Shown: positions 16,855 to 23,185, counted from the stretch's first letter. The stretch: 48,377 bases of DNA from Minisyncoccia bacterium (GCA_965659025.1 CBFHTW010000003.1:1-48377); one strand, 5' to 3'. Made by a program: numbers and translations. The notes: generated by a model not told the origin, from the letters alone.

Positions 16855-17478
16855 ATGGAAATCGTCTACGTACTTACGAATGAAGCGATGGCTGGCTATG
16901 TGAAGATAGGCAGGACTACCACGAGCTTGGAGCAGCGCATCCGTGAGCTCAACTCCTCAACGAGCGTCCCGCTCCCGTTCACGGCGTTCTATGCGTGTAC
17001 AGTGCAGGACAGCACGTTCGTCGAACATCAGCTCCACGACGCTTTCGACGATAGTCGCATCAATCCACGGCGCGAGTTCTTCCGCATTGCGCCCGAGCGC
17101 GTTGTGGCGGCACTCAAGCTCGCACAGATAGAAGACATAACCCCGAAGCGTGATTACGTGGAGATGCCCGAAGACCAAGTGGCGCTCAACCGCGTCCGTG
17201 CCATACGAAGCAAGTTCAACTTCGGTATGGTTGATATTCCTATCGGTGCAGAACTCTCTTTCAGTCGTGATGAGAATATAAAGGCGCAGGTCGTTGACAC
17301 ACAATCCAAGAACTCCATTGAGTTCAGGGGCGAGATAACGAGCTTGTCGCGTGCCGCACAGAACATACTTGGTTTTGATTATGGTGTCGCGGGTACGGAC
17401 TACTGGATGTACGAGGGCGAGACACTCGACGAGCGCCGCAGACGGTTCGAGGGCGGCGAGGAACCTAATCAAGAATAG
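16855..17478 (+). CDS. GIY-YIG nuclease (T5orf172-like) with possible C-terminal RAMA-like domain
   Basis: IVYVLTN..YVKIGRT..RIREL..REFF. C-terminal SLSRAA..GTDYW.YEGETLDERR. Confidence 0.8.
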   Translation: MEIVYVLTNEAMAGYVKIGRTTTSLEQRIRELNSSTSVPLPFTAFYACTVQDSTFVEHQLHDAFDDSRINPRREFFRIAPERVVAALKLAQIEDITPKRDYVEMPEDQVALNRVRAIRSKFNFGMVDIPIGAELSFSRDENIKAQVVDTQSKNSIEFRGEITSLSRAAQNILGFDYGVAGTDYWMYEGETLDERRRRFEGGEEPNQE

Positions 17479-17480
17479 CG

Positions 17481-20012
17481 ATGGACAGCTCCTTCCTACA
17501 GAAAATCAAAGAACGGGTCGGCGAGTGGCGAAGTGGTGGCTACCAAGGCGTCGAGCAGGAAACCCTTACCATCCTCAAGTACATCAAAAGCGTACGTTTC
17601 CTCCACGCGCCGCAGGTAGAGGCACTTGAGACATACATCTATCTCAAGGAGGTCGTTGGTAATAAGCACTCACTGTCGGTCTTCCGCTCGCTTTTTGAGG
17701 ATGAGCGCGAACTCCTACGGGCACTCGGTACCTCTGATGCTGATGCGCTTGACATCGCGTACGACAAAGCGAAAGACGCGCGTATACAGGCGCTCCTTGA
17801 GAGTAAGTTCGGAAGCTCCGATTACGCCAATCAGGTCTATGCGCTGGCGATGGGCTCGGGCAAGACGATTTTGATGGCAACGATGATGCTCTACGATTTC
17901 GTGCTCTCGTACTACCATCCCGAGGACGAACGCTTCGCCAAGAACATACTCGTCTTCGCGCCCGATACGACCATCATAGACAGCTTGAAAGAGATAAAGA
18001 CCTTCGACTATACGAAAGTGCTCCCGAAGGGTTATCGCAATATCCTACTCAACATCAAGTATCACTATCTCGAAAGTCCCGATACACCGCTTTCTCCCAT
18101 CGGCAACTACAACATCATTGTCTCGAACTCACAGAAGATAATCCTCAAGCGCCGCAATACCACGAACCCTACAAAGTCGCTCTTTGCCGAGAAGTCGAAG
18201 CTCGAACGCCAGATGAGCGAGAACGGGCGTCTCGCCACTATCCGTCAACTCGAACGCCTCGCTATCTTCGTGGACGAAGCGCATCACAGCTACGGCAAGA
18301 CGATGGATAACGAGCTCAAGCGCACCCGAGAGACGATTGAATATCTCCACGGCAACAAGCCGCTCGTTTCGGTCGTGAACCTCACGGGTACGCCGTATGT
18401 GCAGAACAAAATGATTGCCGATGTCGTATATCACTTTGGCCTCAAGAGCGGTATTGAGAAAGGCATCTTGAAGCAGGTGCGTATCTTGGATTACGGGAAC
18501 GTGCGCGAGGAGAAGTTCGTGGAGGATGTCGTTGAGACATTCCTAAACGAGTACGGAGAGCACCGTCTCGAAGGCCGACTGCCCAAAATGGCGTTCTATG
18601 CAGCGAGCATCGCTGACCTTCGTGGCTTACGGCAGGTGGTAGAGCGTACGCTTGCCAGTAAGGGGATAGCCCTCGACAAGGTACTCGAATATCACACGGA
18701 AGCGGAGGAGAATAAGGATGAGTTCCAAAAGCTCGACACCGCCGAAAGTAATAAGCAGTTCGTACTTCTCGTCGGCAAGGGAACGGAGGGCTGGAACTGT
18801 CGCTCGCTCGTAGCGTGCGCCCTTTACCGCGAGCCAAAGAGTACCATCTTTGTCCTCCAATCCTCGACGCGCTGCCTTCGCGCTATCGGCGACAACTCCA
18901 CTGTTGCCCGCATCTTCCTCTCAAAGGATAACTACAAAGTGCTCGATAAGGAGCTCAAAAATAACTTCGATACCAGCGTCGCAGAGCTTTCCGCTCAAGA
19001 CCAGAAAGCGATTGACCACGAGCTCAAGGTGGAGCGCCGCAAGAAGGTAAAAGTAAAGAAAGTACTCAAAGAGATGGCGACCGCGGAAGCAGTGGATACG
19101 AGTGGCATCAAGCTCGACTTTAGCAAGTTCAAGGCATCAGAATATCTTTCATTCGTTGGCGAGGGAGGTATCCTCGTGAACGATGATGGTCGTGCGGGGT
19201 ACACCGAGGCGCGTGCAAATCGGCGAGTGGAGGATACACAAAATCTGACATTCTACGAGATAGCGGAGGTCATAAATCGCTATACGCACCTATCGTGCTC
19301 CTCCATTGCGGACATCATCGAGCGGAGCGGCAAGACACGCACCGAGCTCGTACAGCAAGCCAATGAAAGTCCAGCACTCATTCCATTCCTCGTGCAGGAA
19401 GTTCTCGAAAAGGCGTACCGCTACGAATGGCGCGAGGAGACGATTGAGGAAGAACTTGAGCTCACAAAGCTCTACCCGTTCAAGATAACCGTCCAGCACG
19501 ACCGTAATATCCTCGTCGTCTACAAGGAGCAAGAGGAGCAGGACGGCCACAAGAGCCGCATCGGTTTCCATATCAACCCGTACAACTTCGACAGTAGCGA
19601 CGAAAAGGACTTGTTCCGCTATCTCCGTGATTATCTCAAGGAGGACGAAGCCGTGGTGGACGTGTATTTCACGGGTGGCGTGATAGACGCGATACACAAC
19701 GATTTTTATTTCGAGTATTGGAACCCAGAACGTCAGTGCTACGCACGGTATTTTCCTGACTTCTTGGTAGAGACGACGAAGGGTCGCTATCTCATCATCG
19801 AGGTAAAGAGCAATGCCGAGCGTATGGACTACGAGGCAAACGCCAAGAACTACACGGGCAAGGTGGAGGAGCTCACGAACGAGGTCTTTGCCAAGCAGGT
19901 CGGCTTCGAGGAGTTCCAAAAGACAAACGCGAACTTCGAGTACCGCATCATTTTCAACGCAGGTATCCAAGCGGAGCAAGCACGGTTGCTCGAGGAAGTG
20001 CGCTCGCTATGA
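17481..20012 (+). CDS. res: Type III R-M restriction subunit (SF2 helicase plus PD-(D/E)xK nuclease)
   Basis: AMGSGKT, DEAH, TGTP, EGWN, and C-terminal YFPDFLV..IIEVK. Confidence 0.9.
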   Translation: MDSSFLQKIKERVGEWRSGGYQGVEQETLTILKYIKSVRFLHAPQVEALETYIYLKEVVGNKHSLSVFRSLFEDERELLRALGTSDADALDIAYDKAKDARIQALLESKFGSSDYANQVYALAMGSGKTILMATMMLYDFVLSYYHPEDERFAKNILVFAPDTTIIDSLKEIKTFDYTKVLPKGYRNILLNIKYHYLESPDTPLSPIGNYNIIVSNSQKIILKRRNTTNPTKSLFAEKSKLERQMSENGRLATIRQLERLAIFVDEAHHSYGKTMDNELKRTRETIEYLHGNKPLVSVVNLTGTPYVQNKMIADVVYHFGLKSGIEKGILKQVRILDYGNVREEKFVEDVVETFLNEYGEHRLEGRLPKMAFYAASIADLRGLRQVVERTLASKGIALDKVLEYHTEAEENKDEFQKLDTAESNKQFVLLVGKGTEGWNCRSLVACALYREPKSTIFVLQSSTRCLRAIGDNSTVARIFLSKDNYKVLDKELKNNFDTSVAELSAQDQKAIDHELKVERRKKVKVKKVLKEMATAEAVDTSGIKLDFSKFKASEYLSFVGEGGILVNDDGRAGYTEARANRRVEDTQNLTFYEIAEVINRYTHLSCSSIADIIERSGKTRTELVQQANESPALIPFLVQEVLEKAYRYEWREETIEEELELTKLYPFKITVQHDRNILVVYKEQEEQDGHKSRIGFHINPYNFDSSDEKDLFRYLRDYLKEDEAVVDVYFTGGVIDAIHNDFYFEYWNPERQCYARYFPDFLVETTKGRYLIIEVKSNAERMDYEANAKNYTGKVEELTNEVFAKQVGFEEFQKTNANFEYRIIFNAGIQAEQARLLEEVRSL

Positions 20013-20128
20013 CCGAGCCCGAGCCGTTATCGGGGGAGGACATTGGAGAGCTTGCGGAGTTCTTCGACCTGCTGGCGCGGTTCGATTACGAGGATAAAAT
20101 AAGAGAAGGGGCGACACTTGACAAGTAG
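20009..20128 (+). CDS. 39-aa small ORF coupled to res
   Basis: ATGA overlap with the res stop. Reads MTEPEPLSGEDIGELAEFFDLLARFDYEDKIREGATLDK. Confidence 0.5.
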   Translation: MTEPEPLSGEDIGELAEFFDLLARFDYEDKIREGATLDK

Positions 20129-20147
20129 GTATATTGTGTAGTATACT
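20118..20147 (+). promoter_or_regulatory. Sigma70 promoter of the DGR target gene
   Basis: TTGACA-N18-TATACT. Confidence 0.75.
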
Positions 20148-20304
20148 CGTCCCAAGTTCTTTGACTTTCAACTTGCAGGTTTGCCGCAGCAGAGAGCGGC
20201 CGATATTCGGCCTCCGTCTGCTACGGCAAACCCTCGACCCGAGGGAGCCCGCTGGCACCAATGCGTACTTGTCCGAAAGGGCTCATTCGCAAAGGAGAAA
20301 AACT

Positions 20305-20883
20305 ATGAGCGACCTTACGCTCGATGTTGGTCTTGCCGCCAAACTCAAGGTGGCGTTCGCACGCAACGGCTGGACGGAGCAACTGATTGACGCGGCCTGC
20401 GAAGGCGACAAGCTCGGTCAGTTCAAGCAAGTCCTGCTCGGCCACGCCGCCATCAATGTCGTCGAACACGTCATTGACTGCGACGCGCAACCCTTCGTTC
20501 CCGATGGCTGGTCTGTCGAGGAGCATCAGAAGGGCGGCGCGTTCAAGTGGGACAAAGCAACCCAGAAGGACGCCCTCTACCTCTCGAAAGGTCAGGCGGG
20601 CAGCAAGTACATCGAGGGCAACAAGCTCCGCAAGGAGCTCTCGGACAAGAGCACGCCCGTGCTCAACGCCAACGTCCTCGACTACCTGCTCGCCAACCCG
20701 CACCTCATCCCCGAGGAGTGGAAGGGCAAATACGTCTTCTTCTGGGGGACGGTGTACCGCGGCCGCGGTGGCGGCCTGTACGTCCGCTGCCTCTGCTGGG
20801 GCGACGGCAGGTGGGACTGGAGCGGCGACTGGCTCGGCAGCGGCTTCGACGGCAACGACCCCGCCGCGGTGCGTGCAAGTTGA
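20305..20883 (+). CDS. DGR target protein (192 aa) with C-terminal variable region
   Basis: SD AAGGAG before ATG 20305. The last ~41 codons match TR with adenine-only differences. No signal peptide evident. Confidence 0.92.
   Translation: MSDLTLDVGLAAKLKVAFARNGWTEQLIDAACEGDKLGQFKQVLLGHAAINVVEHVIDCDAQPFVPDGWSVEEHQKGGAFKWDKATQKDALYLSKGQAGSKYIEGNKLRKELSDKSTPVLNANVLDYLLANPHLIPEEWKGKYVFFWGTVYRGRGGGLYVRCLCWGDGRWDWSGDWLGSGFDGNDPAAVRAS
20754..20878 (+). repeat. DGR variable repeat (VR)
   Basis: 125-bp ungapped match to 21201-21325 with 19 mismatches, all opposite TR adenines. Confidence 0.97.
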
Positions 20884-20934
20884 ACTTGGTGCTCTGAACC
20901 TCTGAACCCTTGGGCTCTTGGTTCTTTGCACTTT

Positions 20935-20960
20935 GACCCGCGCTGGAAACGGCGCGGGTC
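20935..20960 (+). other. Post-VR hairpin with GAAA loop (DGR target-recognition element and/or terminator)
   Basis: GACCCGCGCTG-GAAA-CGGCGCGGGTC, ~55 bp after VR. Confidence 0.7.
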
Positions 20961-20967
20961 TTTGCTT

Positions 20968-20976
20968 TGCTATACT
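20968..20976 (+). promoter_or_regulatory. Extended -10 promoter, candidate start of the TR RNA
   Basis: TGCTATACT about 225 bp upstream of TR. Confidence 0.45.
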
Positions 20977-21200
20977 CAAGAAAGGCGGTAGGTGAATACG
21001 CGGGCGATTACGGTTTCCCGCTACCGATGCCAGTGCGCGTACGTCGAGAGCGTTCCCGATTACGGTTTGGAGCGGAGTGGCGCACGAGGCACTCAAAAGT
21101 ATGAAGATACTTGGTGTGGGATGCTATGCGAGTGTAGCTCGCGAATACGATACAACCTCAAGAGTATTCAAGAGGTGGTGGTACGGACGGCATCCCATAC

Positions 21201-21325
21201 GAACCGCAACCGCGATGGCAACCTGTACGTCCGCTACCTCTACTGGAACGACGGCAGGTGGAACTGGAGCAACAACTGGCTCGACAACGACTTCAACGGC
21301 AACAACCCCGCCGCGGTGCGTGCAA
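21201..21325 (+). repeat. DGR template repeat (TR)
   Basis: Adenine-rich copy of VR with 11 AAC codons, followed by hairpin ACCCCGC-TAACT-GCGGGGT at 21341-21359. Confidence 0.97.
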
Positions 21326-21346
21326 CTCTCTTCACTTCTCACCCCG

Positions 21347-21739
21347 CTAACTGCGGGGTTGAGTTTTGGTGAGCTGCCCGCTCCAACCGCCGAGCATCTT
21401 GCCGATTTCCTCCACCTTCAAGGAAAGCAGGCCGTACTTGTTCGTATCAATAGATTTCGTCTCCCACAACACCATCAGGAGCACTTTGAGTGTATCTGTC
21501 TTTCGTATCGCTGCGCGGACGTAGGGGCGTTTTTCCTCTCGCGAGAGAAAACTCGCCGATGCTATCATTTCCATAATCTCAATGAACAATGTATCTATAC
21601 GCTGACCGAGTGAGTGCCTATGGAGTTTGGGCAGTATTTGATAGAACGCGTACCACTGGAGGTACGCCGCTTTCACGCTCTGTAAAAGAGGCAAGAGCTT
21701 CGGGGGGGGGGTAGATTTATGGCTATCAAACTCGCTCAT
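21347..21739 (-). CDS. avd: DGR accessory variability determinant (Avd-like four-helix bundle), opposite strand
   Basis: 130 aa, basic, LPK..R..LG..I and EIGKMLGGW motifs. Start placed at ATG 21739. Confidence 0.85.
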   Translation of the reverse strand: MSEFDSHKSTPPPKLLPLLQSVKAAYLQWYAFYQILPKLHRHSLGQRIDTLFIEIMEMIASASFLSREEKRPYVRAAIRKTDTLKVLLMVLWETKSIDTNKYGLLSLKVEEIGKMLGGWSGQLTKTQPRS

Positions 21740-22720
21740 TCCTACGAGAGTATCATCTCGCTGGATAATCTCCTCGAAGCGTGGTGTGAGTTTGTGCGCG
21801 GCAAGAGAAAGCGGAAAGATGTGCAAGAGTTCGAGCTTCGCTTGATGGATAACGTCCTCTCACTCCACAGGGATTTACGCGAAAAGACCTACACCCATTC
21901 TGACTACGAGGCGTTTAGCATCTCCGACCCTAAACCGCGCAACATACATAAAGCGAGTGTGCGCGACCGTCTCCTTCATCACGCGATTTACCGTCTGCTA
22001 TATCCGTTCTTCGACAAGGGTTTCGTGGGAAGTTCGTACTCGTGCAGAAAGAGTAAGGGCACGCATAAAGCGATTGAGCACTTTCAGCAGCTCGCGTATA
22101 GCGCATCTCATAATCACACGCGCACTGTGTGGGTGCTGAAATGCGACGTGCGTAAGTTCTTTGCATCCATAGACCAAGAGCGTCTTCTGCGGATACTCGA
22201 GACGCGCATACCAGACAGCGAAGTACTTTGGCTTCTCGGGCAAATCGTACGCAGCTTCGAGAGTACGGGAACGGGCTTCGGCTTGCCCCTCGGGAACCTG
22301 ACCTCGCAGCTCCTCGTGAATATCTATATGAACGAGTTTGACCAGTTCGTGAAGCACACGCTCAAATCGAAGGCCTATGTGCGATACGCGGACGATTTCG
22401 TACTCCTATCTCGAGACAGGGCAGAACTTGAGCAGCAACTCCCGCGCATCGAGGCGTTTCTTTGGGACGAGCTGCGGCTTACGCTCCACCCCGACAAAGT
22501 GTTCATCAAAACGCTGGCGTCAGGCGTGGACTTTCTCGGGTGGGTGCATTTCCCTGACCATCGCGTTGTCCGTACGACCACCAAGCGTCGTATGCATCGC
22601 CGTCTCGAGCAGATGGAGTGGAAGGAACAGAGCGTCCAGTCGTATCTTGGCCTCTTGAGCCACGGTAATGCGGCGAAGCTACAGCAGCGGATTAGGCGGC
22701 AGCAAGCAGCTCGGGAATAG
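21719..22720 (+). CDS. DGR reverse transcriptase
   Basis: RDRLLHHA, KCDVRKFF, GLPLGNLTSQ (DGR-type GxxxSQ), YVRYADD and DFLG motifs. No maturase or endonuclease extension. Confidence 0.96.
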   Translation: MAIKLAHSYESIISLDNLLEAWCEFVRGKRKRKDVQEFELRLMDNVLSLHRDLREKTYTHSDYEAFSISDPKPRNIHKASVRDRLLHHAIYRLLYPFFDKGFVGSSYSCRKSKGTHKAIEHFQQLAYSASHNHTRTVWVLKCDVRKFFASIDQERLLRILETRIPDSEVLWLLGQIVRSFESTGTGFGLPLGNLTSQLLVNIYMNEFDQFVKHTLKSKAYVRYADDFVLLSRDRAELEQQLPRIEAFLWDELRLTLHPDKVFIKTLASGVDFLGWVHFPDHRVVRTTTKRRMHRRLEQMEWKEQSVQSYLGLLSHGNAAKLQQRIRRQQAARE

Positions 22721-22915
22721 CGATTTTGTAGCGAAACTCGGACTTTCCCTCCAAAAGGACGGTTCTAACTTCGTCCAATGCCCGCAGCCGCGTAAAGACT
22801 CGCAAGGCCTCGTCCACGCGGCTTCGCCAGTCGTGCAAGTCGATATTGTGCGTACATATCCAAAGTAGTAGTCTTTACGCGAGCCACGTGGTGAGTCCGC
22901 GAACTTTACGTGGCC

Positions 22916-23185
22916 ATGTATATGTATTGGACATACATTCTCGAAAACCAGGATGATAAAAGTTGGTATATTGGATATTCTTCCGATCTGAAACAACGGC
23001 TTAAAACACACCAAGCAAAACGGGGTGGTCAGACAACCAGTCGAAAAGAAAATTGGAAGTTGATGTATTGTGAGGGATATTTAAGCAAAGCAGATGCGGA
23101 AGGCAGAGAACGGTTTCTAAAAAGCGGTGCGGGTCGGAAGTTTATAAAGAAGCAACTTGTAAATTATTTAAGCCAATCAGTTTGA
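22916..23185 (+). CDS. Small stand-alone GIY-YIG nuclease
   Basis: WTYIL..WYIGYSSDLKQRLKTH..AEGRERFLKSGAG. Confidence 0.88.
   Translation: MYMYWTYILENQDDKSWYIGYSSDLKQRLKTHQAKRGGQTTSRKENWKLMYCEGYLSKADAEGRERFLKSGAGRKFIKKQLVNYLSQSV

Follow-up and report, generated by a model that had tools for sequence, protein, structure and literature searches.

A candidate phase switch in the inverted avd gene, and a predicted self-contained template RNA, in a Patescibacteria DGR

The DGR at positions 20118-22720 of the window (the whole stretch of DNA that was analysed, 48,377 nucleotides, corresponding to contig C3 of a genome of 533 kb with a completeness of 88.9%) carries its avd gene on the strand opposite to the template repeat (TR) and the reverse transcriptase (RT). 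The question raised by this arrangement is whether, and by what means, it bears on the control of mutagenesis. The preliminary description of the locus took the antisense avd to be a departure from a canonical avd-TR-RT order. It proposed that avd mRNA, being complementary to a TR-spacer-RT transcript, could regulate mutagenesis by antisense interference, and that the priming spacer overlaps a coding gene. To our knowledge the DGRs of CPR bacteria have no experimental model, and the restraint of DGRs by cells is an open question. The reading preferred here, to which a probability of roughly 0.7 is given, is that of an element with the published CPR architecture B3 in which the template RNA would be self-contained and avd would be switched by slipped-strand events. 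It is this regulation that would matter at the locus, rather than a layout that has already been published.

The element contains the following parts.

20118..20147, plus strand: strong promoter-like site of the target gene (TTGACA-18-TATACT, 11/12)
20305..20883, plus strand: DGR target gene, 192 aa from ATG 20305, with the variable repeat as its C-terminus
20756..20878, plus strand: variable repeat (VR), from the TR/VR repeat comparison
20935..20969, plus strand: terminator-like hairpin and T-run 3′ of the target gene
21203..21325, plus strand: template repeat (TR), from the TR/VR repeat comparison
21347..21739, minus strand: avd, 130 aa from ATG 21739 (alternative start TTG 21694), assigned by profile and fold matches
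21719..22720, plus strand: DGR reverse transcriptase (RT), 333 aa, RVT_1

The VR and TR form a 123-nt repeat with 85% identity, and the VR ends 5 nt ahead of the stop of the target ORF. The two copies differ at 23 positions, 21 of which are TR adenines and two of which lie at the 5′ edge; their final 22 nt are identical and constitute a GC-rich IMH-like segment. The VR of the window and that of contigs from other sequencing runs disagree at 13 positions, at TR-adenine sites, and the probable source run holds an alternative VR contig that replaces 20761-20924. As the VR varies at TR adenines between samples, the element is active. The RT matches RVT_1 (E 3e-23) and no DGR-specific NCBIfam model, and it is 56-70% identical to the RTs of 160 loci that have the same cassette. 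The locus is therefore an ordinary, active Patescibacteria (CPR) DGR with the layout TR-(avd)-RT. Its RT and VR are the sole ones found in the assembly, and a search of the 88.9%-complete genome for remote targets gave no additional TR-like copy. The target gene would be transcribed from its own promoter and ended by its own terminator; the 192-aa product matched no Pfam or NCBIfam family. Nineteen of the 21 adenine-site differences are A to G, resulting in a VR rich in Gly, Asp, Ser and Cys, and other letters are found at these sites in contigs of another sample. On one flank of the DGR (16855-20012) lie a T5orf172/GIY-YIG-like gene and the gene for an 843-aa ResIII helicase-like protein, the C-terminus of which weakly resembles a TnsA-like endonuclease, and on the opposite flank (22910-23185) a small GIY-YIG protein is encoded. 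These neighbours may represent a defence or mobile context.

The minus-strand ORF between TR and RT extends over 21347..21826, and its in-frame ATG at 21739 yields the 130-residue protein. The sequence matches the Pfam family bAvd (PF22296) with E 6.4e-10 and 39.9 bits, just missing the cut-off of 40, and the NCBIfam family DivGenRetAVD (NF033474) with E 3.1e-16 and 59.6 bits, under the cut-off of 80, the latter profile beginning at residue 16. PF22296 is also matched by 41/41 aligned relatives. AlphaFold predicts, with a pLDDT of 92, a four-helix bundle (helices at residues 17-33, 38-62, 67-93 and 99-124) preceded by residues 1-16, which are disordered. Foldseek placed 2gsc first, then Avd of the Bordetella phage (4dwl), then the Avd chains of 8ub7/8ube; superposition on 4dwl gives a TM of 0.75/0.88-0.91 with an rmsd of 1.5. 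A sequence profile search of the PDB likewise has 4dwl (E 0.065) and 8ub7 (E 0.43) as its top two matches, both weak. By HMM and by fold the ORF is a true Avd. The minus-strand avd of the preliminary description is hence borne out, and its own check, that the ORF might prove not to be Avd by HMM or structure, came out in favour of Avd through PF22296, NF033474 and the 4dwl-like model.

The orientation of avd was compared with that in related loci, which were taken from the genomes of relatives together with 80 loci on genome contigs and 80 loci on metagenome contigs; the record titles of the relatives name Candidatus Paceibacterota, Parcubacteria or Patescibacteria. The RT N-terminus is present in 175 loci, of which 31 have less than 500 nt upstream and are not assessable, leaving 144. 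Two pairs are the same record entered twice (L002=L036 and L006=L039). In 143/144 assessable loci avd is divergent from the RT and adjacent to it, a count which, like the others given below, overstates independence, the loci being kin. The lone exception (L019), in which avd is co-oriented, has an RT that is 41% identical. The same arrangement has been described for the group as a whole. In the article text of Wu et al. (2018; PMC5758913) architecture B3 is TR-(avd)-RT, the parentheses denoting the reverse strand, and makes up 90% of the CPR DGR set, and the article text of Roux et al. (2021; PMC8144416) assigns the DGRs of Patescibacteria to DGR clade 2. The present element has the same order and strands as these B3, clade 2 DGRs (target, TR, reverse-strand avd, RT), and also the single adjacent target and the small-genome host. 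As far as the text of these two papers goes, the layout is the published CPR layout without any difference. The antisense avd is thus the B3 norm and not a departure from a canonical order, and the claim that it is unusual should be dropped. Of the two halves of the other observation that the preliminary description had set against itself, a documented clade norm and the lack of overlapping transcripts, the former was found. In the article text of these two papers the words ‘spacer’ and ‘promoter’ do not occur in Wu et al. (2018; PMC5758913), which mentions no repeat tract or terminator, and ‘avd’, ‘strand’ and ‘orientation’ do not occur in Roux et al. (2021; PMC8144416), which mentions no tract, promoter, spacer or terminator.

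The start of avd lies inside the RT gene. The RT ATG at 21719 is the first start codon past a stop, and RT codon 7 (CAT, 21737-21739), read on the opposite strand, is the avd ATG, so that the two ORFs overlap head-to-head over 21719-21739. This 21-nt overlap, which had been noted in the preliminary description, is present in the sequence. Among the relatives His7 of the RT is encoded by CAT in 96 loci and by CAC in none, compared with 57% CAT in the rest of the same RT genes (p 3.7e-24). RT codons 1-7 also avoid TTA, CTA and TCA, which are stops on the opposite strand (11/1001 versus 4.45% elsewhere), and the frame that leads from the avd ATG to the repeat described below is free of stops in 76/76 loci, the other two frames being so in 9/76 and 12/76. 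At the level of the clade, use of the ATG at 21739 is therefore supported by codon and frame conservation. In the window avd could instead start at TTG 21694, downstream of the repeat, and from this start the bundle is complete whatever the length of the tract. Ahead of the ATG is a promoter-like motif.

21747..21755, minus strand: extended -10-like motif TGaTACTCT, putative avd promoter, 7 nt upstream of the avd ATG and inside RT codons 10-13

The pattern TGnTAnnnT-N7-ATG is found on the minus strand in 64/96 relatives, and where residue 12 of the RT is Ile its codon is ATC in 85/123 cases, the share of ATC in the remainder of the RT genes being 28%. This suggests that the promoter of avd is embedded in RT codons 10-13 and that avd is probably read from a leaderless mRNA.

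Between this start and the Avd fold lies a simple repeat.

21702..21711, both strands: G10/C10 simple-sequence repeat; its minus strand supplies avd codons 10-13 (TPPP), and its plus strand is a G-rich stretch that ends 7 nt before the RT ATG

In the 533-kb genome, which has only three G/C runs of at least 8, none is longer than G10, and outside the junctions the related loci hold just 8 G/C runs of at least 7 in 660,767 nt. The tract precedes both helix 1 of Avd (residue 17) and the start of the Avd profile (residue 16). At the avd/RT junction 128/143 related loci carry a repeat, with a unit of 1, 2, 4 or 5, as follows.

Mononucleotide repeat: 111/143 loci, 109 of them G, lengths 7-14, mode 9-10
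Dinucleotide repeat: 14/143 loci, mostly GA, with one GT and one CT
Tetranucleotide repeat: 2/143 loci
Pentanucleotide repeat: 1/143 loci
Tri- or hexanucleotide repeat: 0/143 loci
Junction without a repeat: 12/143 loci
N in the junction: 3/143 loci

In the minus-strand reading, poly-G is replaced by (CAGC)n, (GAAC)n and (GGACA)n at the junctions of L040, L045 and L185. In L067 and two further loci a run of N falls exactly at the junction, where the assembly may have left a gap at an unstable repeat or the sequence may have been masked.

Only 19/76 poly-G loci have the conserved ATG and the Avd bundle in the same frame; in 31 the ATG is at +1 and in 26 at +2. Such a random phase (19:31:26) is equally expected of a non-coding tract. 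When any in-frame start is considered, 47 of the 128 repeat-bearing loci have one upstream of the repeat, 23 have one downstream only and 58 have none, and all of the repeat-free loci (12/12) have an upstream in-frame start. At its 5′ edge the tract nevertheless favours one codon phase (48:17:11). In the window the G10 length is the ON phase for avd. A contig from another study is identical over 578 nt except that it has G9, at a depth of 3.2 at which this may be an error; the G9 length would end avd after 8 further codons. The only near-identical locus pairs are the two duplicate records (L002=L036, L006=L039), with equal tracts, and homopolymer lengths in metagenome assemblies carry some error. 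A tract placed between start and fold, with a unit that is never a multiple of three and a random phase, is probably the signature of translational phase variation, which would make avd a switched gene. The G10/C10 tract would sit in a dispensable N-terminal peptide of Avd, where slipped-strand mispairing would add or remove repeat units and so bring the bundle into or out of frame with the conserved ATG. Avd, and hence mutagenic retrohoming, would in this way be switched on and off. If this is true, a second mutational device, a stochastic one, would govern a targeted hypermutator. The broader claim for the clade, in which avd is a contingency gene whose non-triplet repeat heritably switches the hypermutator, most sampled populations are off and the RNA scaffold has moved to the leader, is put at about even odds.

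The proposed switch has counterparts in the contingency loci of Campylobacter and Neisseria (poly-G/C) and of Haemophilus (tetranucleotides). These loci (e.g. PMC3401435, PMC2651432) share with avd a repeat early in the coding region with a unit that is not a multiple of three, a modal poly-G/C length of 9-10, lengths that vary among relatives, and alleles that occur in nature both in and out of frame. What would be switched here is not a surface or restriction gene but the gene for an accessory protein of a targeted hypermutator. The hosts differ as well, those considered here being free-living or episymbiotic Patescibacteria. A literature search found nothing in the text covered that ties DGRs or Avd to homopolymers, phase variation, slippage or simple repeats.

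The repeat in avd might act on RNA instead of DNA. Polymerase slippage or ribosomal frameshifting on the C-run would then give a constant low level of in-frame Avd, as a throttle that is not heritable. Runs of 9-11 identical bases are the commonest, and all three phases are similarly frequent without apparent loss of the element, both of which would be expected of such a device; a run of proline codons is in addition a known slippage context. The di-, tetra- and pentanucleotide repeats at the site (17 loci), however, fit slippage of DNA better, and the tract length ranges from 6 to 14 among loci and possibly differs between two samples of the organism. A throttle at the RNA level is accordingly unlikely, and heritable switching by slipped-strand mispairing is preferred.

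The region on either side of the TR bears on the second part of the question, namely whether avd is antisense to a long TR-spacer-RT transcript. The template RNA appears to have ends and a structured part of its own.

20968..20976, plus strand: extended -10 promoter-like motif TGcTATACT of the TR RNA (TG-extended -10 hexamer)
20984..21202, plus strand: structured non-coding leader of the TR RNA, with predicted helices at 20991-21025, 21038-21086 and 21114-21200
21099..21107, plus strand: leader box, proposed by complementarity to pair with the post-TR linker
21329..21337, plus strand: pyrimidine-rich post-TR linker, complementary to the leader box
21341..21369, plus strand: hairpin and T-rich tail resembling an intrinsic terminator, putative 3′ end of the TR RNA, which overlaps the stop and last codons of avd

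Nucleotide conservation upstream of the TR is seen in many relatives and begins at 20984-20989, and an equivalent TG-extended -10 stands a few bases ahead of the leader in 24/24 sequences judged by eye. In an alignment of 25 sequences the leader has 59 consensus pairs, 45 of which show compensatory changes, and it holds a 12-bp long-range helix in which 21114-21125 pairs with 21189-21200. The covariance model of the leader matches 128/130 loci that have at least 800 nt upstream (24 of these being training rows) and gives a single match within the 48-kb window. An Rfam search of 20700-21900 with E up to 1 returned no family. An exact 12-nt direct repeat, CGATTACGGTTT, is present at 21005-21016 and 21057-21068, where it forms the loops of the leader hairpins P1a and P2a; this suggests an internal duplication within the leader RNA. 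Two contigs from an RNA library lie on 21001-21151 and 21166-21316, a weak hint at transcription of the leader and TR because such libraries can contain DNA. An RNA-library run yielded no contigs over avd, the RT or the target, and a contig of another run starts at 21702, but gaps in coverage and contig ends carry no weight in data of this type.

At the 3′ side of the TR, the avd stop codon TAG (21347-21349) falls inside the hairpin ACCCCG-CTAAC-TGCGGGGT at 21341-21359, as the preliminary description had it. The hairpin has a folding energy of -21.1 kcal/mol (z -4.8; 0/200 shuffles fold as well), its stem covaries among the relatives, and together with the tail TGAGTTTTGG it was recognised as a terminator-like element of the plus strand. 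On the TR-sense strand 101/138 relatives have such an element, a GC-rich hairpin followed by a T-rich tail, no more than 30 nt from the avd stop, against 59/1323 (4.5%) at random positions and 3/138 on the avd-sense strand. The linker that lies between TR and hairpin can form a 9-bp candidate duplex with the leader box. In this duplex 89% of cells are paired versus 47-57% when the segments are slid, a share inflated by the derivation of the helix from the consensus; 6/9 pairs change on both sides and 0/500 shuffles attain the score. These features are in agreement with Handa et al. (bioRxiv 10.1101/2023.10.23.563531), whose preprint predicts stem-loops just 3′ of the TR together with upstream-downstream duplexes in 207/278 Avd-bearing DGRs, including those of CPR.

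Read together, the motifs and their conservation, from which the boundaries and transcript ends of the TR RNA are deduced, would describe a separate template RNA of ~385 nt. It would run from the extended -10 (20968-20976) through the ~220-nt leader (20984-21202) into the TR (21203-21325), continue with the pyrimidine linker that pairs back to the leader, and end with the hairpin and U-tail (21341-21369). On the opposite strand the last codons of avd would be written over the terminator of the TR RNA. The part of the RNA after the TR that matters seems to be ~45 nt, of which only the hairpin overlaps the last codons of avd. A promoter, leader, TR, linker and terminator in ~385 nt of template RNA, with RT and Avd, would amount to a minimal parts list for a CPR DGR.

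The account of the preliminary description can be weighed against these features. It holds that TR and RT are read as a single transcript, that the complementary avd mRNA tunes mutagenesis by pairing or collision, and that the priming spacer is inside avd. The 21-nt overlap of the avd and RT 5′ ends agrees with this account, as does the rarity of a terminator on the strand of avd itself (3/138 loci), since avd transcripts with no terminator of their own may extend antisense into the TR. A recognisable separate promoter for the RT was also not detected: a consensus scan between TR and RT gave none, a base profile of the relatives anchored on the tract showed no sharp motif, and a census of extended -10/TAnAAT motifs gave just a weak rise 60-80 nt upstream. 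The RT may therefore rely on some read-through from the TR promoter past the terminator, which would produce a transcript antisense to all of avd, and antisense effects may arise in this way. Against a single transcript stand the terminator-like hairpin and T-tail directly 3′ of the TR in 101/138 loci, and the conserved structured RNA upstream of the TR, which would pair with the linker ahead of the hairpin. The layout, moreover, is the clade norm and nothing special to this locus. As to a priming spacer inside avd, an extended alignment predicts neither conserved pairs nor pairing with upstream segments for the 120 nt that follow the hairpin on the strand antisense to avd. The hairpin itself has a terminator-like tail, and no long structured 3′ spacer of the Bordetella type is predicted in this stretch, so that avd would overlap the hairpin only. 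As the TR RNA would be separate, with a promoter, leader and terminator of its own, the element is not likely to be designed around a long TR-spacer-RT transcript that is antisense to avd. The single-transcript account thus retains the antisense avd and its overlap with the RT start, loses the long transcript, and as a whole is judged quite improbable. According to the preferred reading, of a self-contained template RNA and a slipped-strand switch, avd would be antisense chiefly to two segments, the hairpin that ends the template RNA and the first 7 codons of the RT, and not to a long priming spacer.

The RT would begin 7 nt past the G10 tract, which raises the question of whether the tract serves the RT only. 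That the tract is just a Shine-Dalgarno or 5′-UTR element of the RT, with avd starting downstream (at TTG 21694 here) and the length drifting neutrally, is very unlikely: the RT does start 4-24 nt past the repeat in 98/125 loci (mode 13 nt), poly-G and (GA)n are rich in purines, residues 16-17 are where the Avd profile and helix 1 begin, 23/128 loci have a downstream start only and the phase relative to the upstream ATG is random, but (GT)13, (CT)10 and the tetra- and pentanucleotide repeats at the same place cannot be Shine-Dalgarno sites, tri- and hexanucleotide repeats are absent, 58/128 repeat loci have no in-frame start on either side while 12/12 repeat-free loci start upstream, RT His7 is always encoded by CAT (96 loci) and never by CAC, with the upstream frame stop-free in 76/76, and the 5′ edge of the tract keeps its codon phase (48:17:11). 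As a separate observation, 27/125 repeat-bearing loci (including L010 and L013) have no RT ATG, GTG or TTG after the repeat, and in 12 of those 27 the RT reading frame stays open across the repeat as far as a start upstream of it, so that in some elements the RT rather than avd may be gated by the repeat.

The DGR of Bordetella phage BPP-1 (avd-TR-brt; bioRxiv 10.1101/2023.10.23.563531, PDB 8ub7) shares with the present element the adenine-specific transfer from TR to VR and a stem-loop just 3′ of the TR, which is predicted here. The Avd four-helix bundle is also shared, the model having a TM of 0.73-0.76 to 4dwl and 8ub7. The duplex that bridges the flanks of the TR in BPP-1, formed by avd and Sp, may have its counterpart here in the candidate pairing of leader box and linker. 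In contrast to BPP-1, the avd gene here has the inverse orientation and follows the TR. The structured RNA would here be a dedicated non-coding leader 5′ of the TR, whereas in BPP-1 it is a ~140-nt spacer 3′ of the TR; the 3′ part here would be only ~45 nt and, unlike that of BPP-1, would end in a terminator-like hairpin. The predicted template RNA suggests that the scaffold which follows the TR in the Bordetella phage can also be moved to its 5′ side.

Retron ncRNAs (msr-msd) are self-contained structured RNAs with structure 5′ of the template, read by a neighbouring RT, and the predicted template RNA is alike to them in outline only. There is no match in sequence or structure, the Rfam search being empty, and the DGR differs in that its product is used for retrohoming into the VR and that Avd is needed.

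The only other G run of at least 9 in the genome is a G9 on contig C2 (47413-47421). It was considered as a sign of a second DGR and rejected, as it lies inside an unrelated 254-aa ORF (L026, 2596..3360); this ORF could be a second phase-variable gene.
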